A DNA stretch of 64,000 nucleotides from assembly GCA_048882325.1 (NCBI GenBank), contig JBHLRS010000005.1, positions 32,001 to 96,000 of the forward strand, read 5' to 3'. The notes under the pieces are model-generated. The model saw nothing but the letters and a program-made list of their open reading frames with translations, was not told where the DNA came from and did no database searches. Each line of letters begins with the position of its first letter. Position 1 is the stretch's first letter. This stretch comes from Candidatus Thorarchaeota archaeon (lineage in GTDB: Archaea > Asgardarchaeota > Thorarchaeia > Thorarchaeales > Thorarchaeaceae). Position numbers and translations under genes: made by a program. Below are positions 23,229-36,621 of this stretch, piece after piece.

Positions 23229-25310
23229 GTGGTTAGTATGCATCTGTATGGAAAAACTTGGGTTTTAATCATCTTCATGCTATGTATACTATGTACTTTT
23301 CCGAAAGTCACTTCAAATCTCGCTAATGTCACAATAGAGAGTTTTGAATCAACTGATAGCCCGAGTCTTGCTTACGTCGAACATGATCCAATAAACATTA
23401 CATCCGATTTGGACTTCAGCTCACAGAAAAACGTGGAAGGTTGGAGCGGTAACGGTAGTGCATCAAATCCCTACTTTATTGAGGGGTATAATATCACTTA
23501 CAGAGGATACAGTATAACAATCACAAACATTACATCACATTTCGTAATTCGAAACTGCTATCTCGCATCAAATCTGGGAATGGCACTATCAGATCCATAT
23601 GATGACGGTATTCAGTTAATCAATGTAGCAAATGGAGAAATTGTGAATAATACAATTCTCAATAACGGAGACGGAGGAATCTATGCTGAACTGTCTAACA
23701 TATCTGTGTCCAACAACACAATTATCGGAAATCGACTTGGAGTGATTTTTGTTAATTCATCAGGAAAAGTGTCCTCCAATAGAATTCAGGATTCAAGTGA
23801 ATACTCTTTATATTTCTTGGACTCAATACATTGCGACATTCGGAGTAACCGTTTCTTATCAGCTCCAATCAGTGAATGGTTGATTCAAAATTCCGCATAC
23901 ATCACAATTGAGGATAACACATTTCAGGCAACCAAAATCATTTTACGAGCTTGGAATACAACAGTTGCCTATAACAATCTCTCTTCGGGCTCAGCCATTG
24001 GGATTCAATTCTGTTCAAATGTTATTGTCGAGCATAATAATATCATCAATCCATCCTTAAATGCAATCGAAGTAGGTTACTCAAATCAAATCAGAGTAAC
24101 ATACAATACTATCCTTTCTGATATTCCTGTGTTCGATAACGGCATTATGGCGTTCGACTCAGATAATTGTCTTTATAGCGGAAACATCATATCGACATGT
24201 CTTAATGGTATCGATCTTGCGTATGCAAATTCATCTGTGGTCACATACAACTATATTGTTGGACAGCAAAACTATGGAATTAACATCTACGAAGGTTCTG
24301 AATATCTCATCTACGGAAACCTATTGACAAATGAAGGAATAGGACCTGCAAGAGACTCGAGTACTGACAGCCAATGGGACGATGGATCTCATATTGGCAA
24401 TTTTTGGGAGGCAATTAGTGATACGTTTGTAGAGATTCCAGGAAGTGCAGCAAGTGTAGATCGATTAGGACGGTCCATTGGACAAACAAATCTTACATTG
24501 CCTTTAGTCTATGAGTCTCCTATCATTAACATTATTGAGGAGGACAGAGCTGAGGTAAGATGGATTATATGGAGTAATCAAGGGACATATTCATTATATA
24601 GAAATGGATTTGAACTAGAAAGTCGAGATTGGGAAGGTTCTGGATTAATCTACTTTGAAATTGGCAACCTTCCCAATGGTTTCTACACCTACTCGATTCT
24701 GCTACAAGATTCTGTAAATGGAATTGTTTCAACCTTATACTCCATCGAGATTCCAAATCTGTGGTTTGTTGATTCTGATATGGACGGAATGCCAGATGAT
24801 TGGGAAATAGACAATAACTTGAATCCGTTCTTTGATGATGCAGGTTGGGACCATGATTCTGATGACCTGTTCAATATTGATGAGTATAGAATCGGTACTG
24901 ATCCTAGTAATCCAGATTCAGATTTTGACTCCATCTATGATGGTTGGGAGGTCCATTTCGGACTAGATCCATTGAATGCCTCCGACGCCTTGATGGATTT
25001 AGACTCAGACTCTTTGACGAATCTTCAGGAATTTGAGATTGGCACAGATCCCACAAATCCAGACAGCGATCTAGACAATTTCCCAGATGCCTGGGAGGTC
25101 AAGAACGGGTTTGATCCGACAAACCCAGCTGTGTCCTTCATGCAGTATTTTGTAGCTAGTGCAGCTTACATAGCCATTGCGTCATCGTTAGTGATTCTCT
25201 TGATGAGCATTCTCTATTTAGGAGTCTTTGATAAGCGCTCTCGGATGGACGCGCAGGTCAGGAAGGAAGAGGAGGATGAACAAGCAGCGTTAGAAGAACT
25301 GCTTGAATGA
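23229..25310 (+). CDS. Cell-surface protein: right-handed beta-helix (NosD-like), Ig-like segment, DxDxDG repeats and C-terminal TM anchor
   Basis: Signal-like N-terminus; GNGSASNPYFIEG; parallel beta-helix repeats; GNFW; DSDxDGMPDxWE repeats; TM followed by a charged tail. Confidence 0.85.
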   Translation: MVSMHLYGKTWVLIIFMLCILCTFPKVTSNLANVTIESFESTDSPSLAYVEHDPINITSDLDFSSQKNVEGWSGNGSASNPYFIEGYNITYRGYSITITNITSHFVIRNCYLASNLGMALSDPYDDGIQLINVANGEIVNNTILNNGDGGIYAELSNISVSNNTIIGNRLGVIFVNSSGKVSSNRIQDSSEYSLYFLDSIHCDIRSNRFLSAPISEWLIQNSAYITIEDNTFQATKIILRAWNTTVAYNNLSSGSAIGIQFCSNVIVEHNNIINPSLNAIEVGYSNQIRVTYNTILSDIPVFDNGIMAFDSDNCLYSGNIISTCLNGIDLAYANSSVVTYNYIVGQQNYGINIYEGSEYLIYGNLLTNEGIGPARDSSTDSQWDDGSHIGNFWEAISDTFVEIPGSAASVDRLGRSIGQTNLTLPLVYESPIINIIEEDRAEVRWIIWSNQGTYSLYRNGFELESRDWEGSGLIYFEIGNLPNGFYTYSILLQDSVNGIVSTLYSIEIPNLWFVDSDMDGMPDDWEIDNNLNPFFDDAGWDHDSDDLFNIDEYRIGTDPSNPDSDFDSIYDGWEVHFGLDPLNASDALMDLDSDSLTNLQEFEIGTDPTNPDSDLDNFPDAWEVKNGFDPTNPAVSFMQYFVASAAYIAIASSLVILLMSILYLGVFDKRSRMDAQVRKEEEDEQAALEELLE

Positions 25311-25472
25311 CTTGTTCCTGAAATCTTGACCCTTGTACTGCTTTGGATCCTTGCCAAAGGTCTCTTTACAATAAGGATTGCAGGAATAGTACGTCTTCCC
25401 CTCGTAACCACTAACGAGTATGGCTGTGGCCACATCCTCGTTGCAGATTGGGTCAACCGCAACTTCAGGAAT
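25290..25472 (-). pseudogene. Cryptic second YHS domain in frame after the copA TAG stop
   Basis: Translation past TAG gives IPEVAVDPICNEDVATAILVSGYEGKTYYSCNPYCKETFGKDPKQYK..., a copy of the copA terminal YHS domain; no obvious own start codon. Confidence 0.75.
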
Positions 25473-28160
25473 CTAGGATTCAGTTGCATTTACTTCCTTG
25501 TATTGCTCAGGATTGGCTTCGAAGTTATCTTTGCAGTTTGGATTACAGAAGTAATACCGTTTGCCTTCATAGTCACTATAGAGGTCAGCAGTAGCGATGT
25601 CGACTTCCATTTTGCAGATAGGATCGACTGCAACAGCTCCTTCCTGATAAGCAGCAGGTGGGACTCCACTCAAGGGTGCAGTTGTCTGTTCAGGTGTAAA
25701 TCGGTTCAAAGTCAATGCATTGGTAACTACACTTACACTTGATAACGCCATGGCAAGGCCAGCGAACTCAGGACGCAGTATTAGACCGATTGATGGAAAT
25801 AGAATTCCTGCCGCAATTGGTAGAAGCGCAATGTTGTAGATTAGCGCCCAGAAGAATCCTTGTCGAATCTTTGACATTGTCCGACTGCCTAACTGGATTC
25901 CTGTAACCACATCAAGGAGGTCATCTTTGACCAGGACAATGTCACCAGTTTCAACTGAAACGTCTGTTCCTGACCCTAGCGCAATTCCAACATCTGCCTG
26001 AGCCAATGCAACAGCATCATTTACGCCATCTCCGGCCATGGCAACAGTCTTTCCTCGACTCTGCAATTCCTTGATTTTCTCAGCTTTATCAGCTGGTAGA
26101 ACTTCACCGAGAACATTATTAATTCCGACAACATCTGCTATTGCATGCGCTGTTTCTTCCTTGTCACCTGTTATCATCCAGACTTCTATGCCCATCTTCT
26201 GTAAGCTTTGAACAGCTTGGACAGAGGTCTCCTTCAGCTTGTCTGCAATTGCTATGAGTGCAAGGGGATTTCCATTGATAGCTGCAAAGACCGTTGTCTT
26301 TCCTTTCTCCTGCAACATTGTACCCTGTGCTTCTGCATTTGAGATATCAATTGAATTCTCACTCATGAATTTGTCATTACCAACAAGAATCTGATGACCT
26401 TCAACAATCGCTTTTACTCCTTTTCCAGTTACAGACTCAAAATCGGTGCTGGATGGAATATCAATGTCAAGATTCTCGGTATATTGAACAATTGCCTCGG
26501 CTAAGGGATGCTCACTGTTCTTTTCAACAGAGGAGATAAGACGCAAAGCTTCTCCGTCACTGAAATCGCCATACATGATCATATCAGTAACCGTCGGCTT
26601 GCCAATTGTGAGGGTTCCAGTCTTGTCGAATACAATTGCATCAACTGTGGGGATAACTTCCAGACCTTCTCCTGCCTTTATCAGGATCCCGTGCTGTGCT
26701 CCTTTTCCGATGCCGACCATGATTGCGGTGGGGGTTGCTAAGCCCAGTGCACAGGGACACGCGGCGACCAGCACTGCAATACTAAAGGTCAAAGACTGAG
26801 TGAATTCAACCGGTAATCCTGTGATTGGTGAAACAATACCCAAAGCAGGGGAAACCCAGAACCAAAATATGTAGGTCGAGAGGGCCAAAATAATGACCAC
26901 AGGTGTGAATCTATTTGCAATCGCATCAGCCTTGCGCTGAATCGGAGGCTTGTTTGTTTGGGCTTCCTCAACAAGTTTGACAATCTGTGACAATACGGTA
27001 TCCTTGCCGACCTTTGTAGCTCTTATCTTGAGTACTCCGTTCTTATTGATTGTAGCACCCACTACGTTGTCGCCTACCTTTTTCTTGACTGGAAGTGGTT
27101 CCCCAGTAATCATCGATTCGTCGACGCTTGATTGGCCTTCTATGACTTCACCGTCCACAGGGACTTTGTCTCCAGGTTTGATGAGCACAATGTCTTCAAC
27201 TTCAACATCCTCTATTGGCAGAAGCAGTTCTTCTCCATCTCGTACGACAGTTGCTACTTTTGCTTGCAGGTCCATCAGACTACGCATTGCTTTGGAGGTC
27301 CGCCCTTTTGCGACTGCTTCAAGCGTCCTTCCAAGAAGAATGAAGCTTAGAAGAAGTACAGCTGAATCGTAGAATGGGGTGTATATACTCCATTCGGGCA
27401 AAAATGTTGCTGCTACAGAATACAAGTATGCAGCGCTTGTCCCCAGGATAATTAAAGTGTCCATGTTTGTTGTAAAGTGACGAGCTGCTTTTAGAGCAGA
27501 CTTATAGAATGGGTATCCTGCAATAAACTGCACAGGTGTTGCAAGAATGAACATAATGTATTTCCGTACTTCCTCAGATGGCACTAAGGTCGAAAACACA
27601 CCAAAGTGGATCAGTACAACAGGGATTGTCAACAAGACTGAAAACGCTAAAAGTCGAGAATAATATCGAATTTCATTCTCTCTGGCGAGAGATTCTCGAT
27701 CGGCATCAATACCCTCTGCTTCTGAGATTGTTACTCCAATGCTCTGAAGCGACTTCTTCACAATCTTATATGTGATCACGTCATCATCATATTCTATCAA
27801 TACGCGGTTCGATTCTTCAATTGAGTGAACAGATATGACCCCATCAATAGATTCCAAAGTCTTCAGGATTCTGTTCCAATCCAAAGGTGATTCGGATTCA
27901 TCTAGAGTGATTGACATGGATGGTCGTCGTGCACGGTATCCCGTATCCTCGATAGCCTTCTCTAGTGTAAATCTATTCACAGAATCAGGTTCGTATTCAA
28001 CTACAGCTTTTTCATCTAGGAGACTGACATTAGCCTTAATTACGCCATCTTGACCGACTAAGGCACCTTCTATCTTTGCCACACAAGATGCGCAATGCAT
28101 CCCTTCAATACGCAGTGACATTCTGGATGCGGTAACCCTTTGTTCAGATTTCTGACTCAT
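25473..28160 (-). CDS. copA: Copper-translocating P1B-type ATPase with N-terminal HMA and C-terminal YHS domains
   Basis: GMHCASC, TGE, CPC, DKTGT, SEHPL, GDGVND, YN and MALSS (Cu+ type) motifs; C-terminal DPIC...YYFCNPNC. Confidence 0.96.
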
Positions 28161-28202
28161 CTCTTTTCACCGTTTTTGAAATTCGAAATAATGTTTTTTA
28201 CG

Positions 28203-28222
28203 ATATATCGTACTCGATATAT
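28203..28222. promoter_or_regulatory. Palindromic operator ATATATC-N6-GATATAT upstream of copA
   Basis: ATATATC gtactc GATATAT, overlapping a minus-strand TTATATA box. Confidence 0.75.
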
Positions 28223-28267
28223 AAGATTTGTGATTGGACCGGCTTCAATCGGAAACCATATTGTCAA

Positions 28268-28783
28268 CTATAAACTCTGTTTGAACGCTTTAGCACAATG
28301 AACACAACAAAAAGTCATGGTTGTACCATTGACTTCCTCATGGTGCGCACCTTCGAAAACCCTAGCTCCACAACTTGCACATGCCGTAAGACTGGATCCG
28401 AGAGCAGATACTGTGATCGCAGCAAAACGTTTGAATAACTGGTCACTAAATCGCTTTCCCTTCCTCGTCATTGAGTACACGATCCTGCGTTTCTTCCCTA
28501 TGTCTTCCTGCTTCTGGGTGACTAGCTTCTTTTCTTCGAGTTCCTGCAAAAATGGATAGAGTGTTCCTGGACTTAATTTTTTCCCAGTTCGGTTTTCATA
28601 TCTTTTCATAAGACCATAACCATGCAATGGTTTTTCGTTCAACATCAATAAGATATAGAAATGCGAGAAATCAGCCAGTATTTCTTGTATGTCAGGATTG
28701 GGTGTTTTCATGTCTTGAATTGCATTTTCCTTTGTCATTTTTCGTGTCATCCCAATATAGCTCGAATGTTGTGAGTCACACAA
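28268..28783 (-). CDS. PadR-family regulator with C-terminal TRASH-type metal-binding domain
   Basis: ILLML...HGYGL...SPGTLYPFL..LEEKKLV...RRIVYSMT.KG (PadR); CASCG...FCCVHC (TRASH). Confidence 0.9.
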   Translation of the reverse strand: MCDSQHSSYIGMTRKMTKENAIQDMKTPNPDIQEILADFSHFYILLMLNEKPLHGYGLMKRYENRTGKKLSPGTLYPFLQELEEKKLVTQKQEDIGKKRRIVYSMTRKGKRFSDQLFKRFAAITVSALGSSLTACASCGARVFEGAHHEEVNGTTMTFCCVHCAKAFKQSL

Positions 28784-28927
28784 ATAAGGAATCGAGGAGT
28801 TTCCAGGTGTGACATATAGCCCATTCCGCGAAGCAGTTTCCTATAATAGTTGCTTGTTGACTAGATTCTTCCCAATCACTCTGAGAAATGGACTACACTA
28901 AAAGAGATTTAGATTGTATCAATATAA

Positions 28928-28961
28928 ATGTATCTTATGGGATATATCCATAGGGATAATT
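28928..28961. promoter_or_regulatory. Two overlapping operator copies upstream of the PadR-TRASH gene
   Basis: ATGTATC ttatgg GATATAT (28928-28947) and ATATATC catagg GATAATT (28942-28961). Confidence 0.65.
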
Positions 28962-29157
28962 GATACGATACTCTTCGGAACCCAAGAGATTCATGGCATC
29001 TATAAGACGCTCCCTATCGATACTATCGACCTCGATTTCAACAACAACCTTGACGTTTTGAAGACTTACTTCAGCGCCTTTTATTCATTCCTAATAAAGA
29101 TGGGCATTCTTAATTCTGTCAGATTAGTCAATATAGAGCAGCAGACAGAAGGTTTAT

Positions 29158-29220
29158 ATATATCGAGTAGGATATATCTGATTAGATATTATTGTTTTCG
29201 ATATATCTCAATAGAAATAT
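29158..29220. promoter_or_regulatory. Three operator copies upstream of the YHS-Lon-NIF3 operon
   Basis: ATATATC gagtag GATATAT (29158-29177), ATATATC tgatta GATATTA (29172-29191), ATATATC tcaata GAAATAT (29201-29220); TTTATATA box at 29153-29160. Confidence 0.72.
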
Positions 29221-29239
29221 ATAGACAGAGGCAAAGGAA

Positions 29240-29395
29240 ATGGCTAGAGATCCAATATGTGGAATGATAGTAGATGAGAACACAACCAAGCTAAAGTCGG
29301 TTCACAAAGGAGAAACTTACTACTTTTGTATGATGAGATGCAAGAAAGCCTTTGACAGTGATCCAGATCGCTTTGCCATCGAATCGACACATTAA
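29240..29395 (+). CDS. YHS/TRASH domain metallochaperone-like protein (51 aa, not in ORF track)
   Basis: Manual translation MARDPICGMIVDENTTKLKSVHKGETYYFCMMRCKKAFDSDPDRFAIESTH. Confidence 0.9.
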   Translation: MARDPICGMIVDENTTKLKSVHKGETYYFCMMRCKKAFDSDPDRFAIESTH

Positions 29396-29416
29396 TGATA
29401 AAACAGGTGCGTATCT

Positions 29417-31870
29417 ATGAAGAAACTGACATCAGGAGAAATCCGGGTTCGTTGTGATGATAGGGAGTTTGCATGCAGAACTAGTGCGGAGCTTTTCCCC
29501 CTAGATAATATCGTTGGGCAGAAGCGTGCTCTTGAATCGTTGCGATTCGGACTAATGATAAAGGACAAAGGATTCAATGTCTACGTTGCTGGTATTCCAG
29601 GAACTGGTCGTACAACTGCAGTTTCAAAATTCCTTCAAAATCTTGCAACAAAAGAATCTAACGCATCAGATTGGTGTTATGTAACCAATTTCGAGGACCA
29701 GTATCACCCACGAGCTCTTGAGCTGCCATCAAGCAGAGGGTTGCAATTAGAGCAGCAAATGGAGAGTTTCATTGAACTTGCTCAAATAACGCTTTCTGAG
29801 ATGCTAGAAAGTGAGGAATATATCATACAGCGAGATGAGCTTTTGAGGATTTTCAAAGACAAACAGCAGGAAATAAGCAATCAAATGGAAGATGAAGCCA
29901 AAAGACACGGGTTTGTATTGCAAGGTTCTAAGACTCGATTACTCCTGCTACCACTAATCAATGGTGAGCCTCTCAATCCTGAAACAGACACTCACCTGCC
30001 CAAGGAAATCCGGGACAAAATCGCAGAAAATCGCAAAGTTGTGGAAAAGCAAATGGGAGTGTTTTTCCGTCAATTACGTCTTATTGAACGTGAACTTCGT
30101 GCTGCTCTTCAGAATAAAGAACGTGATGCTGTGCTTTATGCCCTCTCTCCACTTATTGATGACCTTAAGGAGAAGTTCAGGGATTTGCCAAAGGTTACGC
30201 AATGGTTTCAGGACGTTGCGGAGGATATCACCGAACATCTTCAAGAATTCATCGGACTCTCAGAAATTGATTCATCAGATGAGCTGAATTTATCGCAAAC
30301 GGGATCAATTCTACAGGAAGAATTCACTCATAGATATAAAGTAAATCTGTTTGTTGATAATTTGGGAGCGGATGGCGCTCCTGTTGTTATCCTTGCAAAT
30401 CCTTCTTATAACAATCTATTTGGCATTATTGAGAAAGAACCACGATATGGCGGACTTAGAACAGATTTTTCTATGATTCGCCCAGGGGCCCTTCACAAGG
30501 CAAATGGTGGATATCTAGTGGTTCCTGCAATGGAACTTCTAACTTCTCCACATGTATATCAATCTTTGAAGAGAGCACTTGAACATGGCGAGATAGTCAT
30601 CGAGGAACCTCAGGAATCAGTCAGCTTCTTTACTGTGAAGAGTTTACGTCCTGAACCAATCCCATTGGACCTCCAAGTAATTCTAATTGGTGAGGAAGAG
30701 ATTTACCGAGAGCTATACAATAAGGATCCCGAATTTCGTCAACTTTTCAAGGTAAAGGCAGAATTTGATATTTCGATGGATCGCACACCTGAAAACATCC
30801 ATGTATTCGGCTCGTTCATTTGTATGATTCATACAAAGGAAGGTCTGAGACCTTTGAAAGCGGAAGCTATAGCAGAAGTAATCGATTATAGCTCTCGTCT
30901 AGCAGAAAGTCAAAATAAACTCTCTATAAGATTCGACATAATAACTGACATCATACGCGAAGCAAACTTCTATGCGAGCGAAGAGAAAAGTGTCACGATA
31001 GAAAGAGATCATATCAAAAAAGCCATCCGTCAAAGAATATACCGATTGAATCTTTACTCTGAGAAGGTTCGTGAGCTTATTAAGAAGAATATAATTTTTA
31101 TCGATCTTGATGGGGAAACTGTAGGACAAGTAAATGGACTTTCGGTAGTCTCTCTTGCAGGTCATGCTTTTGGACAAACATCTCGAGTTACAGCTAGTAT
31201 ATCACCTGGACACCAAGTTGTAATAGATATTGAACGTGAATCCAATCTTGGTGGTCCGATTCATACAAAAGGAGTACTCATACTTGGGGGATATCTAGCT
31301 AATCGATATGGAAGAGAAAAACCGCTTAGTCTTTCAGCGCGGGTTGTTTTTGAGCAGAGTTATGGAGGTGTTGAGGGAGATAGTGCAAGTAGCACGGAAC
31401 TGTATGCGATTTTATCTGCTCTTTCAGGTATACCCATTCAACAGAGATTTGCTGTAACTGGCTCTGTCGATCAACATGGAAGAATACAAGCTGTGGGAGG
31501 AATTAATGAAAAGATTGAAGGATTTTACGAACTTTGCAAAGCAAAAGGTTTGACAGGACATCAAGGAGTCTTGATACCGAAAGCCAATATTCAGAATTTA
31601 ATGGTATCAGATGAAGTAGTCGAAGCTGTCAGAGCAGATTCATTCCATATTTATGCAATAGAAAATGTGGACGAAGGCATTGAATTGCTGACGGGTGTAC
31701 CAGCAGGTAGAATTCAAGAGAATGGCAATTATTTGCCAGGATCAATTAATGCAGTGGTGGATGAGTTTCTAGTTCGAATGGCTAGAATTATGGAAAAGTA
31801 TTATTCAACTGAAAATCACAACAAACAAGAAATCTCTACAATACCCCAAGTGACGTCCTCTGGAGTGTGA
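29417..31870 (+). CDS. Lon-family protease, LonC-like (long coiled-coil insertion, no TM)
   Basis: GQKRA, Walker-A-like GIPGTGRT, PGALHKANGGYL, GQVNGL, FEQSYGGVEGDSAS (catalytic Ser), EKIEGF (catalytic Lys). Confidence 0.92.
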   Translation: MKKLTSGEIRVRCDDREFACRTSAELFPLDNIVGQKRALESLRFGLMIKDKGFNVYVAGIPGTGRTTAVSKFLQNLATKESNASDWCYVTNFEDQYHPRALELPSSRGLQLEQQMESFIELAQITLSEMLESEEYIIQRDELLRIFKDKQQEISNQMEDEAKRHGFVLQGSKTRLLLLPLINGEPLNPETDTHLPKEIRDKIAENRKVVEKQMGVFFRQLRLIERELRAALQNKERDAVLYALSPLIDDLKEKFRDLPKVTQWFQDVAEDITEHLQEFIGLSEIDSSDELNLSQTGSILQEEFTHRYKVNLFVDNLGADGAPVVILANPSYNNLFGIIEKEPRYGGLRTDFSMIRPGALHKANGGYLVVPAMELLTSPHVYQSLKRALEHGEIVIEEPQESVSFFTVKSLRPEPIPLDLQVILIGEEEIYRELYNKDPEFRQLFKVKAEFDISMDRTPENIHVFGSFICMIHTKEGLRPLKAEAIAEVIDYSSRLAESQNKLSIRFDIITDIIREANFYASEEKSVTIERDHIKKAIRQRIYRLNLYSEKVRELIKKNIIFIDLDGETVGQVNGLSVVSLAGHAFGQTSRVTASISPGHQVVIDIERESNLGGPIHTKGVLILGGYLANRYGREKPLSLSARVVFEQSYGGVEGDSASSTELYAILSALSGIPIQQRFAVTGSVDQHGRIQAVGGINEKIEGFYELCKAKGLTGHQGVLIPKANIQNLMVSDEVVEAVRADSFHIYAIENVDEGIELLTGVPAGRIQENGNYLPGSINAVVDEFLVRMARIMEKYYSTENHNKQEISTIPQVTSSGV

Positions 31871-32766
31871 TTAGTATGACCAAGCAAAATTACATAAAGA
31901 ATCTGGAGGGATTGACCAAATCTATTTCCTTAAGAACAATAATAGCCCCATTAGAACCTCAGGTAGTAAAGTCAGAAATAGTACAAACTAAGCAATTCAT
32001 AAATTCCGACAGCATCATAGAGTTTCTAGAAAATCGTACATACTTACCTGAGTTTGATTATATTGGTTATGAAGTAAACACTGTTGATCGTATTAACGCA
32101 GTATATTTGATGATAAATCCAGACCCTTTGAATCTTAATTATGTACCAAAAAACAGCCTTGTTATTTGTCATCACAAAATATCTACACACAATAATCGTA
32201 TCTACGAAAAAATGCTTGACCATGCAAGAGATTCAAACTTCAACATTTACAATTTCCATCTTGGGTGGGACATTATGGAAGATGGAATCACAGATTCATT
32301 TCTATTTGACTTTGGGTTAGCTCATCACGATTTCGAAAAAGTTGATCTTACATATCGAGGTCATCTAATTCCTCATCTAGGAGCTATTTTCAAAAAAAGA
32401 TTAACAATGGAGGACATAATCAATAGACTTTACATGATGAATGTCCAGCCATCAATTATCATTAATCCACAATGCAAGGTGTCCAAGATTGGATATATAC
32501 CTGGTGGTGGTTTTGTTGATGATATGGTCCTAGAGATGGCGGATTTAGGTGTCGATGTTCTCATTTCATCAGACCATAATTGGGTTGTTGAAACTGTTGC
32601 TAGAGAAGTAGGTATGACCCTAATTGAAATTGACCATTATCGCAGTGAACGCCATGGTTTGCGAACAATGAAGACCCTTCTTGAGAACTCATTTTCAAAC
32701 ATATCCATCAATATCCTAGAGAATGTTGATGGAATGAGACGAGCCCCATGCGATTGTAATTCTTGA
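31867..32766 (+). CDS. NIF3/YbgI-like dinuclear metal-binding protein (divergent)
   Basis: ICHH, YNFHLGWD, PGGG, ISSD, IDHYRSE match NIF3 metal ligands; GTGA overlap with the Lon gene. Confidence 0.7.
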   Translation: MISMTKQNYIKNLEGLTKSISLRTIIAPLEPQVVKSEIVQTKQFINSDSIIEFLENRTYLPEFDYIGYEVNTVDRINAVYLMINPDPLNLNYVPKNSLVICHHKISTHNNRIYEKMLDHARDSNFNIYNFHLGWDIMEDGITDSFLFDFGLAHHDFEKVDLTYRGHLIPHLGAIFKKRLTMEDIINRLYMMNVQPSIIINPQCKVSKIGYIPGGGFVDDMVLEMADLGVDVLISSDHNWVVETVAREVGMTLIEIDHYRSERHGLRTMKTLLENSFSNISINILENVDGMRRAPCDCNS

Positions 32767-32861
32767 GGAATGATCATCCAAGAAGAACTCTTGTTGCATA
32801 CTAGCTTAAGCACACCACTTCTATGATCGTTTCTTCAATTTACTCATTTTTAAACCATCTT

Positions 32862-33749
32862 TCATTGAACTCTCCGAGCCCGAACAAGCTCTACATTGAC
32901 AACAATGTGGCCAGGGTTAGAACGTTCTTGAATCCTGGTTTTAATGTAAAAGAGTAAAATCAAAGAGATATATCCAACATATGCAATGACCTCAATGGCT
33001 GAAGGGTTCCCATTGTAACCGAATAGAGCTTTTGCAAGTCCACCAATGAGACCATTCTCATGCAGAAGTGGATAACTGCCATCTGGGAATAATGGAGGAT
33101 TGATGTTCCAAAGTTCACTTGGACCTAATGCCAAGAAACCTATTTCTTGAAGCTCATGAATACCATAAGCAATCATTCCAGCGGCGAATAATACCAAAAG
33201 GATAGAAGTTGAATTGAAGAATGATTTTAGACTGACTCGCAATGAGCCTTGATAAATTCCCAATCCGACAAAGAATGCGAATATTAATCCCAAAGCAGCT
33301 GCAATGAAAGTTGTATATCCTTCTTGAATTGCTAAGGCAACTATGAACAGGACTAACTCGACACCCTCCCGCAAAACAAGAGCAAAAGCAAGAATCGGTA
33401 GACTGAGATTTCCTCCCACAGCCCTCTCCTCAACCGATTGTTTGATTTCAGTGGTTAGGTTTGTACTCGCCTTTCTCATCCAGAATATCATAGATGTCAA
33501 GAGGATCGCAGCAAATAACACAACTGACCCCTCAAAGACCTCCAGCATTGGTCCTTCAAATGACCCCCATATCACCACCAGCACTGAAGCTAATCCAATA
33601 CTCGTGATTATTGCAAGTAATGTGCCGCTGATGATACTGCGATTCAATTTCTCTCTGCCAGTCTTGCGTAGATAAGAGAACATTATTGCAATGACAAGGG
33701 CAGCTTCAATACCCTCACGCAATGAAACAATGAATGGTGCAATGACCAT
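32862..33749 (-). CDS. FTR1-family iron/lead permease
   Basis: Two REGxE motifs (REGIE, REGVE), HELQE, 7 TM. Confidence 0.93.
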   Translation of the reverse strand: MVIAPFIVSLREGIEAALVIAIMFSYLRKTGREKLNRSIISGTLLAIITSIGLASVLVVIWGSFEGPMLEVFEGSVVLFAAILLTSMIFWMRKASTNLTTEIKQSVEERAVGGNLSLPILAFALVLREGVELVLFIVALAIQEGYTTFIAAALGLIFAFFVGLGIYQGSLRVSLKSFFNSTSILLVLFAAGMIAYGIHELQEIGFLALGPSELWNINPPLFPDGSYPLLHENGLIGGLAKALFGYNGNPSAIEVIAYVGYISLILLFYIKTRIQERSNPGHIVVNVELVRARRVQ

Positions 33750-33763
33750 TATAGAATCCCCCC

Positions 33764-33907
33764 ATCATGGATTGATTCGTTTCGTCTAGCAGAGATTTTA
33801 TTCAGATAATGCAACATTACATATTGTCTTTGGTGCTTCCCTGGTCTACGGATAAACAATCTATAAGGTTCATTGATCTCCTCCTTTTGATCCAATACTA
33901 TGCTCAT
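33764..33907 (-). CDS. Possible 47-aa small protein between the ubiquitin-like gene and FTR1
   Basis: ATG 3 nt after the upstream stop; MSIVLDQKEEINEPYRLFIRRPGKHQRQYVMLHYLNKISARRNESIP fills the gap; no motif. Confidence 0.3.
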
Positions 33908-33910
33908 GAT

Positions 33911-34342
33911 TCAACCTCCTCCTATAGCAACCATAAACACAATTGTGTCACCTTCATTGAGTATTCTTTTCATTGATTCTTTAGAATCGAGTTCCATTTT
34001 TAGTTTCCAACCTGTTATGATTATTTTACCATTGACTATGATGATTGTTTCATTACTGAGGATTGGGTTTTTCTTCTCATCTAGATACGCATCCATTGAA
34101 TCACCAAACACACTCATCAGCTGACCAATCAGATCAGTGAGTGAAGTTCCTTCTTGAATTTGAAATTGAAATTTGTTGTAGTTTGATTCTCTAAGTCCCT
34201 TATTCAACAGCTTGATGAAAACTTGAATCACTGAGTTTTCCCTCTTCGACAGTTGTTGCCAAGAAGACAACTTTGACATGTAGGAAATTTCCGAGAGTAT
34301 CATTCTGTAGAATTCCTTCTTTGATATGCATCTCTTAACCAC
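33911..34342 (-). CDS. MoaD/ThiS/SAMP-type ubiquitin-like protein (start possibly GTG at 34231)
   Basis: IIIVNG...LNEGDTIVFMVAIGGG beta-grasp C-terminus with di-glycine. Confidence 0.85.
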   Translation of the reverse strand: MVKRCISKKEFYRMILSEISYMSKLSSWQQLSKRENSVIQVFIKLLNKGLRESNYNKFQFQIQEGTSLTDLIGQLMSVFGDSMDAYLDEKKNPILSNETIIIVNGKIIITGWKLKMELDSKESMKRILNEGDTIVFMVAIGGG

Positions 34343-34517
34343 AACAACCTCGTCGGCGCATTGATACTAATCTACGCTGTGAATAGAAATATGGGGAATC
34401 ATCAAACCTTGTTTTGCATGACTGCTTGCAAAAATAGTATCTCTGTCCCATATAATCAGAATAAAATTCTGTTACTTTTTCGTTTACCTCTAATCCACAA
34501 ACTGGATCGTTTACCAT
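34335..34517 (-). CDS. YHS/TRASH domain protein with GCCG tail
   Basis: DPVCGL...YYFCKQSC...F...P; C-terminal RRRGCCG; AGGTGA RBS. Confidence 0.88.
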   Translation of the reverse strand: MVNDPVCGLEVNEKVTEFYSDYMGQRYYFCKQSCKTRFDDSPYFYSQRRLVSMRRRGCCG

Positions 34518-34628
34518 CGTTAAATCACCTTCAGTTCCGGTTTTACGCTTTTGGCTCTAATATTCAAGATGTTGGTGAACGAGTATCTCTATCCAATAGA
34601 CCAATTGTTCACCAAATCTCCAGATTGT

Positions 34629-34717
34629 ATATTACCACAAGGATATATCGGAACTGTATTATTAAAGGCGCTCGGATATATAAATATATCGGTCAAGATA
34701 TATCCATTATGATATAT
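34629..34717. promoter_or_regulatory. Operator cluster upstream of the YHS-Ubl-FTR1 operon
   Basis: ATATATC ggtcaa GATATAT (34684-34703), ATATATC cattat GATATAT (34698-34717); degenerate pair at 34629-34662. Confidence 0.72.
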
Positions 34718-34735
34718 ATTGGTGTTTGCCATTTG

Positions 34736-34771
34736 AAAGAAAAAAGAGAGGAGAAGTGGGAATCTTCTCCT
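34736..34771 (-). terminator. Hairpin plus U-tract downstream of the third YHS gene
   Basis: AGGAGAAG (34749-34756) / CTTCTCCT (34764-34771); the minus strand continues CTCTTTTTTCTTT. Confidence 0.55.
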
Positions 34772-34812
34772 GCCCGCATAAGAATTGTACAGGATTCCTT
34801 AGGCTACTCTTC

Positions 34813-34965
34813 CTATTCTCGAATTCCCACTTCTAAGTTAAATTTCTCTGGATTGGCGTCGAACATCTTTTTATGCTCTTCATTCATAAAATAGTATGTT
34901 TTCCCCTTGTAAACGGATTTGATATGGGGTTTACCCATCATTCCACAAACAGGACATTTTGCCAT
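34813..34965 (-). CDS. YHS/TRASH domain protein, Met/His variant (50 aa)
   Basis: MAKCPVCGMMGKPHIKSVYKGKTYYFMNEEHKKMFDANPEKF...; AGGTGA RBS before the ATG at 34965 (the track ORF over-extends to 35118). Confidence 0.85.
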   Translation of the reverse strand: MAKCPVCGMMGKPHIKSVYKGKTYYFMNEEHKKMFDANPEKFNLEVGIRE

Positions 34966-35078
34966 TTTTGTCACCTTTTTTCCCGATTGTATATTCCTAT
35001 TAGATCGTTCATTTGACTCTCCAGAAACACCCCGAATAAATGGAGAAACGGAGACTCCAATGAAACACTCGATTATAT

Positions 35079-35167
35079 TTATATCCATAGGGATATATCG
35101 AGATTGACCTATAATCACATCATTGTAATATAAATCTATCGCTTTCGATATATCTACGTAGATTTAT
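35079..35167. promoter_or_regulatory. Two pairs of overlapping operator copies upstream of the third YHS gene
   Basis: TTATATC catagg GATATAT (35079-35098), ATATATC gagatt GACCTAT (35093-35112), ATCTATC gctttc GATATAT (35134-35153), ATATATC tacgta GATTTAT (35148-35167). Confidence 0.7.
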
Positions 35168-35272
35168 CAATCAAATTTAAGCAAATAAAATTGCGATGAA
35201 TAGCAGTTTCTGTTCGCCCAGATAATTTAGACTCACCTCTCCGTGAGAATCAGCTGTTGTTTCAGAGTGATA

Positions 35273-35959
35273 TCATCCCATGTAGATGCCTGTTTCTTCG
35301 CCTTTTAGGGCTTCAGTCATCATACGCATGAGTTCATGAAAAGTATCCTGGATGTTCTCTCCAGTCTTTGCGGAGGTCTCTCGAAAGATGGCAGGAACCT
35401 CTAATTTCTTGATGAAGTACTCACAGAAGGCTTGACCCTCTTCAGTTGTGACGAATTTGGACTTGTCATTGCTCTTGCGAAGGTCAATCTTGTTCCCAAT
35501 GATCACGGTTGGTGGTAGTGGACCCATGTTCTTGTATGCCTCGACCAACCACTTACTTGCATTATCGAATGTCTCTCTGTCAATCACTGAATAGACCAGT
35601 AGTATTCCGTTGCATCCACTGTAGTAATGTCCTCTGACCTTCTCGAAGGTCGGTTGACCTGCGAGGTCCCAAATAATGAATTTGACCACATCTTGCTCGA
35701 AGAGCACTCGCTTCGTAGCGAGGTCAACGCCAATTGTTGCAAGATGTCCCTCGATGAAGTCTTCGCCCAAATAGTTGCGGCGTATGCTAGTCTTACCTAC
35801 GGCTCCGTCACCGATCAAAACAGCTTTCATGATTTTGCTGCCATCATCTTGGTCACGCATGGTGTTTTTCTCCTGAAGCACATGTCCGCATTCTCGTGTG
35901 ATGTAGTCAGGTGGCCCTCCCGTGTTACTTGACCACAGAAGAATCACAGCTTTACCCAA
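35273..35959 (-). CDS. Rab-like small GTPase (start probably 35860)
   Basis: GDGAVGKT, TIGVDL, WDLAGQ, NKID, ETSAK. Confidence 0.93.
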   Translation of the reverse strand: MGKAVILLWSSNTGGPPDYITRECGHVLQEKNTMRDQDDGSKIMKAVLIGDGAVGKTSIRRNYLGEDFIEGHLATIGVDLATKRVLFEQDVVKFIIWDLAGQPTFEKVRGHYYSGCNGILLVYSVIDRETFDNASKWLVEAYKNMGPLPPTVIIGNKIDLRKSNDKSKFVTTEEGQAFCEYFIKKLEVPAIFRETSAKTGENIQDTFHELMRMMTEALKGEETGIYMG

Positions 35960-36030
35960 AATAAAGTTGGTGATAGATTATCAAAAAGGAATCTAATGAT
36001 TACAAATCATGTATTTTACTTACCAAAGAG

Positions 36031-36621
36031 TCAAATTTTGAAATCAGATTTACTCTTAGACCACCAGTTTTTCCACTCTTGCTTCATCTTCTGACGACCA
36101 GGCTCATGTATCCCTCCTACGAATGTCGGACCGGGATTACCTAAAGCACGACGCAGTAGAACGATTTGACCCATATGACCTGTATAATGAAGCGCGATTC
36201 GCTGAATGCTCTGTAGGAGGGTTTCATCGAGATCTGGGAAGATTATCTTCCCAAAATCCTCATCATTCAGTGTTTGAAGATATGAAAAACTAGATTCGGA
36301 GATCTTTAGATATTCATCAATGAGATCTTCAAAGGTCAAAGGTGCCGCAGTTGCAGAGATCTCTTCCTTCGTTGTTCCATATCTGAAATATTGAGAAACA
36401 CCATCCGAGATCATATCATCCTGTTGGCAAGTACTGCAAAGAACCATGTGAAAATGCGCAAAGCAGTGACCAAGTATCCACATGATACTGTTGAATTCAG
36501 GATGTGCCTGTTTGTATACATCATCCGGTCGAACCTTGAGGAATGAGAATAGCAGGTTTGTTTCAGCAGTCTCAAGGAGACTGATTGCGATAGATTTGGA
36601 TCCGTGAGTCATATGATACAC
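36031..36621 (-). CDS. DinB/YfiT family protein
   Basis: NSIMWILGH...H and HYTGHMGQI..LRR.LG motifs. Confidence 0.85.
   Translation of the reverse strand: MYHMTHGSKSIAISLLETAETNLLFSFLKVRPDDVYKQAHPEFNSIMWILGHCFAHFHMVLCSTCQQDDMISDGVSQYFRYGTTKEEISATAAPLTFEDLIDEYLKISESSFSYLQTLNDEDFGKIIFPDLDETLLQSIQRIALHYTGHMGQIVLLRRALGNPGPTFVGGIHEPGRQKMKQEWKNWWSKSKSDFKI

Follow-up and report, generated by a model that had tools for sequence, protein, structure and literature searches.

A 20-bp palindrome, ATATATC-N6-GATATAT, recurs at five promoters in a 64,000-nucleotide stretch of the genome of an uncultured Candidatus Thorarchaeota archaeon (contig C5:32001-96000, hereafter the window), around a gene whose product joins a PadR DNA-binding domain to a C-terminal TRASH domain (PadR-TRASH). 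The promoters are those of copA, of padR-TRASH itself, of the putative operons YHS1-LonC-NIF3 and YHS2-UbL-FTR1 (UbL, ubiquitin-like protein), and of YHS3. We propose that the palindrome is probably the operator through which PadR-TRASH represses these promoters, with repression being relieved by copper. The assignment of the putative operator to PadR-TRASH is well supported by genome comparison, and we infer which protein binds from the geometry and specificity of the motif, from where it sits in the promoters, and from its linkage, across genomes, to the regulator and to copA and YHS genes. An earlier sequence-only reading of this DNA had described operator arrays at five promoters, and the comparative evidence strongly supports arrays of this kind for the local regulator.

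A palindrome confined to one locus

A scan of the window allowing at most two mismatches returned 14 matches to ATATATC-N6-GATATAT where 0.35 were expected, a number reached in 0/100 dinucleotide shuffles. All 14 lie within 28203-35167 and none in the rest of the window, in line with the sequence-only reading, which had noticed the motif nowhere else. The twelve copies listed in that reading were all recovered. Those at 28203, 29158, 34684 and 34698 match the consensus perfectly, those at 28928, 29201, 35079, 35134 and 35148 carry one mismatch, and those at 28942, 29172 and 35093 carry two. A degenerate pair reported at 34629-34662 holds in its first half, as the copy at 34629 has two mismatches, and less well in its second, a weak copy at 34643-34662 with a perfect left arm and, read by eye, three mismatches in the right arm. 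Two further details of the early description are present in the sequence: adjacent palindromes overlap through a common central GATATATC, which gives a 14-bp offset, and the spacer CATAGG is found twice, in the copies at 28942 and 35079.

The specificity extends to the whole genome (3.6 Mb, 44% GC, 89 contigs). With a spacer of 6 nt, the genome holds 4 perfect and 7 one-mismatch sites, all 4 of the former and 5 of the latter within the 7-kb stretch described here. Spacers of 0-5 and 7-12 nt yield 0 perfect and 0-5 one-mismatch sites each, some of which are shifted readings of true sites. The exact arms occur 260 times (ATATATC) and 230 times (GATATAT), yet are paired only at spacer 6 (four times) and at no other spacer from 0 to 19. 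The motif is thus far from equally frequent in unrelated AT-rich DNA, and the 6-nt spacing is clearly enriched. A further 21 singletons with two mismatches are scattered elsewhere in the genome; as a mixture of intragenic and intergenic sites whose number equals the background at other spacers, they were not counted as part of the regulon. The putative PadR-TRASH regulon in this genome is confined to the window.

Linkage of motif and regulator across genomes

In 87 genomes of the window's order we looked for both the PadR-TRASH protein and perfect copies of the motif. An orthologue (52-100% identity) is present in 32 of the 87 and the motif in 31; 29 genomes have both, three have only the regulator (G003, G006 and G038), two have only the motif (G010 and G071), and 53 have neither, with zero perfect copies among them. 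A reversed-pattern control matched in 2 genomes. The 87 genomes are related to each other, and the Fisher value is not read as a probability. Motif and gene are found in the same 8 of 17 genera, and within the window's genus (g1) in 9 of 27 genomes, a patchy joint distribution indicating that the two have been gained and lost together.

Most of the exceptions have particulars of their own. G071 is a metagenome-assembled genome of 510 contigs with its sites on short contigs, G006 and G003 carry one-mismatch sites (in G003 upstream of copA), and G038 holds a gene fragment only. The remaining one, G010, speaks against our reading: this single-contig genome has two sites before copA and no PadR-TRASH orthologue, its best PadR protein being 40% identical. 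Either the regulator was recently lost there, or another factor took over. The G010 sites (L093/L105; C1:265671-265704) lie between a Ras GTPase gene and copA.

Perfect sites remote from the regulator gene all lie upstream of copA-like ATPases or YHS genes (G004, G005, G010, G011, G013, G015, G016 and G033), and padR-TRASH itself adjoins copA and YHS genes in Bathyarchaeia and in most of the Thorarchaeota loci that we looked at. All five promoters with operators are retained in the close relatives L035 and L036; more distant relatives retain padR-TRASH and copA. A 28-kb metal island in G060 (C16:6500-34600; L099, L100) contains ~20 operator copies together with two PadR-TRASH paralogues, three copA-type ATPases, many YHS genes, LonC, NIF3 and FTR1.

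Footprint and array period

Within 26 of 30 orthologous loci, whose regulators are 52-90% identical, the arms are conserved and the 6-nt spacers differ. A matrix of 137 non-identical sites places the highest information at C7/G14 and T6/A15 and almost none in the spacer, apart from an avoidance of A at the first spacer base (21/274). The 14-bp overlap period, which the sequence-only reading had taken from this locus, proved to be real and conserved: among offsets of adjacent sites up to 120 bp apart in the 30 loci, 46 of 61 are exactly 14 bp, and the remainder cluster at 16, 41-43 and 53-56 bp. A neighbour at 14 bp requires a third arm in exact phase, so the array is not a by-product of a single site.

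These data bear on whether the palindromes are regulator sites at all. With its ATATAT core the half-site looks like a TATA box, and the palindromes lie at -40..-60, where TATA-like words peak broadly upstream of start codons throughout this genome (Shine-Dalgarno-like words lie at -15..-10); a specialised strong arrangement of TATA box and B recognition element (BRE), or a chance AT-rich repeat, might be invoked on these grounds. This explanation is nearly excluded, in our view, by the most conserved positions, C7 and G14, which are not TATA features, by the strict dyad symmetry and fixed spacing, by the 53 related genomes without a perfect copy, and by the sites found downstream of TATA-like boxes.

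Bathyarchaeia orthologues and a PadR paralogue

Orthologues from Bathyarchaeia (44-49% identity) are accompanied by a variant site, ATATATC-N7-GATATAT, between padR-TRASH and a divergent YHS-copA unit. The arrays there also have the common central GATATATC, at an offset of 15 bp, and so both the arms and the principle of the array survive a change in spacer length.

The sole other cluster in the window's genome (C57:3637-3691) lies upstream of a gene that encodes a PadR paralogue of 259 aa and runs divergently from an aldo/keto reductase gene (L001:2829-4802). The paralogue shares 30% identity with PadR-TRASH in the winged helix-turn-helix (wHTH), and 44 of the 87 genomes have an orthologue of it, many of them lacking PadR-TRASH. 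Its own site, ATATCA-N4-TGATAT, is kept in 24 of 26 upstream regions examined, in arrays with 14-, 21- or 12-bp offsets depending on the genus, and the first spacer base is A in 39/46 sites and the last T in 42/46. The C57 cluster was considered as a remote member of the PadR-TRASH regulon and rejected, as it belongs to this separate paralogue and is conserved in genomes without PadR-TRASH. A related TATC-N6-GATA site precedes the paralogue's gene, with or without PadR-TRASH in the genome, and the dyad type is therefore a property of PadR proteins in these archaea. The inner flank and the outer AT extension set the sites of the two systems apart.

The similar core used by the paralogue, the 15 PadR-family matches in the genome, and the retention of sites in G010 would suit a different factor, one of the ~15 PadR-like proteins or an unrelated regulator, binding the palindromes while PadR-TRASH merely travels with the island. 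We consider this very unlikely. Over the 87 genomes the motif tracks PadR-TRASH, and the paralogue is present in many genomes without any perfect motif; the inner flank separates the two sets of sites, with A at the first spacer base common in those of the paralogue and rare in those linked to PadR-TRASH; and the pairing of motif and regulator is kept in Bathyarchaeia.

The PadR-TRASH protein

The regulator gene (28268..28750, - strand) encodes 160 aa from an ATG at 28750, although public gene calls start at 28738 (156 aa). A PadR wHTH (PF03551) is recognised at 61.1 bits against a cut-off of 27 bits, at residues 44-112 of the 171-aa frame, and the PadR and HTH_34 models are the only ones to match; the AsnC/Lrp model does not match the regulator. 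The C-terminal domain has the pattern C-x2-C-x20-C-x3-C and reads CASCG-x18-FCCVHC. C120, C123, C144, C145, H147 and C148 are invariant in 24 orthologues, with the spacing C120-x2-C123-x20-C144-x3-C148. The TRASH signature is reportedly C-X2-C-X19-22-C-X3-C in the 2003 consensus of Ettema et al., and the cysteines of PadR-TRASH agree with this form in all three spacings (x2, x20 and x3).

In an AlphaFold2 model (mean confidence, pLDDT, 86), the wHTH and a wing are followed by a long helix (92-116) and then by a small beta/helix domain (118-155). Its best structural matches belong to PadR subfamily 2 (5h20, Rv3488, TA0346 and LmrR; Z 12-14), and the DNA complexes of AspA (5k5o, Z 11.9) and of Bacillus subtilis PadR also match. 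A sequence search against solved structures found no match for the TRASH part, and the fold searches were dominated by the wHTH, hardly probing the TRASH fold. From this model, the protein is predicted to be built as a PadR subfamily-2 regulator, with a wHTH and a long dimerisation helix, that carries a four-cysteine TRASH tail for metal binding. Public records label the family just “PadR family transcriptional regulator”, and our literature search found no paper mentioning both PadR and the TRASH domain, a query combining PadR, TRASH and copper returning unrelated papers only. PF08394, the model of the classical CopR-type TRASH domain, has no match in the genome.

Probable operators at five promoters

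At copA, a single perfect site (28203..28222) occupies -62..-43 from the ATG. AAATC-TT precedes it, so that the distal arm makes TTATATAT behind a BRE-like AAATC. In ~10 orthologous promoters the operator has this position, 42-46 bp before the ATG, and a conserved GACATT follows ~10 bp downstream of the operator, where a transcription start would be expected. The promoter of YHS1-LonC-NIF3 (operators 29158..29222) has a similar layout: the distal arm of the pair 29158/29172 overlaps TTTATATA, and a further, third site at 29201 lies at -39..-20 from the ATG, with an alternative shifted by 2 bp (29203) that reaches 29222. These operators are conserved in L035 and L036.

The other three promoters are arranged differently, with an operator pair abutting a conserved TTTATAT box (GATAYAT-TTATA in ten loci). 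Upstream of padR-TRASH, the pair 28928/28942 (28928..28961; one and two mismatches, 14-bp offset) abuts a conserved minus-strand TTTATATT box. At YHS2-UbL-FTR1 (34629..34717), the perfect pair 34684/34698 abuts TTTATATA and is accompanied by the conserved degenerate site 34629 and its weak partner 34643. At YHS3 (35079..35167), the pair 35134/35148 abuts TTTATATT, and a second pair, 35079/35093, lies ~22 bp downstream of the box. The additional sites of YHS2 and YHS3 fall 22-36 bp downstream of the TATA-like box.

The sequence-only reading had several copies overlapping TATA boxes; we find overlap or abutment with TATA-like elements at all five promoters. As far as these boxes can be recognised, the operators appear to coincide with, abut or flank them, and a position on, next to or around every TATA-like box favours repression. 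PadR-TRASH might instead act on these sites as a copper-dependent activator or dual regulator that stays on the DNA and remodels the promoter upon metal binding, as proposed for the Lrp-type CopR of Pyrococcus and Saccharolobus. In Saccharolobus, Halobacterium and Pyrococcus, CopR works as an activator or has a dual role (PMC7830388), and the pairs of padR-TRASH, YHS2 and YHS3 stand directly upstream of a TATA-like box, the usual position of an activator. The operators of copA and YHS1, however, coincide with the TATA-like box and reach on towards the start, additional sites follow downstream of the box at YHS1, YHS2 and YHS3, and the characterised PadR and LmrR proteins are ligand-released repressors (PMC3506622, PMC5050560, PMC5728393). 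On this evidence we judge activation or dual regulation to be unlikely.

Some observations, in addition to the G010 locus, count against copper-relieved repression by PadR-TRASH. The TRASH-clan Pfam models score just under their cut-off of 27 bits (PF11494, Ta0938, 25.9 bits; PF24273, 24.1 bits), and precomputed Pfam annotation assigns both to many orthologues. As the TRASH-bearing CopR activates or acts dually (PMC7830388), the sign of regulation cannot be derived by analogy. The half-sites are themselves TATA-like, which makes the TATA assignment ambiguous. Lastly, the promoters of padR-TRASH, YHS2 and YHS3 would need leaders of 110-150 nt.

The predicted padR-TRASH leader is a conserved feature in its own right. 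The ~150-nt stretch between the operators and TATA box of padR-TRASH and its ATG (28751-28927, - strand) is conserved in 9 of 10 aligned related loci, and includes a block around 28838-28857 with an invariant-looking GCAACTATTATAGG. It has no consensus RNA structure, no conserved small open reading frame and no Rfam match, and an Rfam scan of 25000-36500 found no RNA family. The stretch may represent a second, unregulated promoter or a leader.

Proposed mechanism

In the repression model, a PadR-TRASH dimer would bind one 20-bp dyad, with its recognition helices set roughly a helical turn from each other on the inner TATC/GATA cores and its wings in the outer AT-rich minor grooves. Abutting sites in 14-bp register would lead neighbouring dimers to share the central GATATATC. 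Without metal, the arrays would occlude TBP, TFB and RNA polymerase, so that copA, the genes of the three YHS metallochaperones, those that share an operon with them (LonC-NIF3 and UbL-FTR1) and padR-TRASH would all be repressed. Once the TRASH cysteines had taken up Cu(I), the protein would bind DNA less tightly and the locus would be derepressed. We infer here the sign of regulation, the metal and the cooperativity of binding.

A bolder version, which we regard as possible if doubtful, is that the dimers polymerise on the arrays. The wHTHs of neighbouring dimers would sit on one 8-bp GATATATC from opposite faces, each dimer rotated by ~120 degrees, and a short nucleoprotein filament would sandwich the TATA box and make the copper switch ultrasensitive. 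In Bathyarchaeia, arrays with a shared centre persist although the spacer has changed from 6 to 7 nt, which suggests that the sharing itself is selected.

Genes of the locus

The gene copA (25473..28160, - strand) encodes a P1B ATPase of the Cu type (TIGR01511, 609 bits against a cut-off of 397 bits), which has an HMA domain at its N terminus and a YHS domain at its C terminus. Behind its operators, the putative operon 29240..32766 on the + strand comprises YHS1 (29240-29395), a LonC-like protease gene (29417-31870) and NIF3 (31867-32766). On the - strand, the putative operon 32862..34517 begins with YHS2 (34335-34517) and continues with a gene for the UbL, a ThiS/MoaD-like protein (33911-34342), and one for an FTR1/EfeU permease (32862-33749); an unannotated 52-aa open reading frame (33749-33907) fills the gap between the last two, its stop overlapping the FTR1 start. 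YHS3 (34813-34965, - strand) encodes a 50-aa YHS mini-protein. A terminator-like hairpin with a T-run (34771-34749, - strand) lies just 3′ of it, consistent with a monocistronic YHS3 and with a promoter of its own for YHS2.

A Ras-family GTPase gene (35273-35959, - strand) follows. In many genera such a gene adjoins the operator region, in the order Ras, operators, padR-TRASH or copA, and this synteny is conserved; none of the operators is assigned to the GTPase gene. Within the window, 28941-29123 (- strand) holds a decayed copZ-like HMA gene, 58% identical over 48 aa to an intact 78-aa HMA protein (L036:9431-9667). Two in-frame stops interrupt it, the N-terminal part with GMxCxxC is missing, and its 3′ end overlaps the padR-TRASH operator pair. 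The intact gene in L036 has an operator pair of its own.

Significance and comparison with known regulators

To our knowledge, archaeal copper sensing is known only from the Lrp-type CopR. In the protein described here the TRASH sensor is joined to a PadR DNA-binding domain, and this combination seems to stand in for CopR in Thorarchaeota and Bathyarchaeia. The unusually sharp 20-bp dyad, with virtually no background in the genome, would place this factor-operator pair among the few in Asgard archaea, a lineage without genetics, that are directly testable in vitro, and it offers a clean way of reading copper regulons from metagenomes. The base adjoining the common TATC-N6-GATA core could be what insulates two PadR paralogues of one cell from each other. 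The content of the regulon suggests that copper stress is handled jointly with protein quality control and iron uptake; if the filament switch is real, it would couple copper export in Asgard archaea with proteolysis (LonC), with a Urm1/ThiS-like modifier and with the FTR1 iron permease.

Published PadR operators consist of ATGT/ACAT repeats 8-10 nt apart (PMC3506622, PMC5050560). The sequence-only reading had set the palindrome apart from the ATGT-N8-ACAT site, which is right for the bases (ATAT, not ATGT) and wrong for the geometry: in register, AT-ATAT-C-N6-G-ATAT-AT is a 4-N8-4 dyad in Thorarchaeota, and the Bathyarchaeia site a 4-N9-4 dyad, both within the 8-10 nt range. The site thus has the canonical PadR geometry, built from different bases. 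The bacterial repressors B. subtilis PadR, Lactococcus lactis LmrR and Mycobacterium tuberculosis Rv3488 resemble PadR-TRASH in the PadR wHTH, the PadR-s2-like fold, the 4-N8-4 dyad and the location of the regulator beside its target. The structure of B. subtilis PadR on DNA places helix alpha-3 in the major groove and the wing in the adjacent minor groove (PMC5728393). The arms of the bacterial operators are (C)ATGT, whereas those found here are ATAT with an inner C/G and an outer AT; the bacterial effector module is a pocket for aromatic ligands, in contrast to the C-terminal four-cysteine TRASH domain; and the host here, an archaeon, uses TATA/BRE promoters.

AspA of Sulfolobus pNOB8 is, like the predicted PadR-TRASH fold that it matches, an archaeal PadR-s2 protein, and has been solved on DNA. 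It spreads as contiguous dimers, which would provide a precedent for PadR dimers that abut. Unlike PadR-TRASH, it is a segregation (centromere-binding) protein rather than a metal-responsive factor, and it has no TRASH domain. It is also an unusual member of PadR-s2, with a short wing and no minor-groove contact (PMC5728393).

The CopR/CopT regulators (Pyrococcus furiosus PF0739, Thermococcus onnurineus TON_0836 and Saccharolobus solfataricus SSO2652) likewise fuse a TRASH-type cysteine domain to a DNA-binding domain, are encoded beside copA and a small TRASH/YHS-type chaperone, and have multiple sites at cop promoters, with autoregulation implied (PMC7830388). CopR, however, has an Lrp/AsnC helix-turn-helix, forms octamers that wrap ~150 bp, and recognises, upstream of the BRE, the motif TTNNCAWWWTGNNAA, which has 0 matches in the window, whereas the system described here has a PadR domain, a strict 20-bp dyad and 14-bp arrays. 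PadR operators and TRASH copper sensors are both known kinds, and their combination in these archaea is a variant and no new category.

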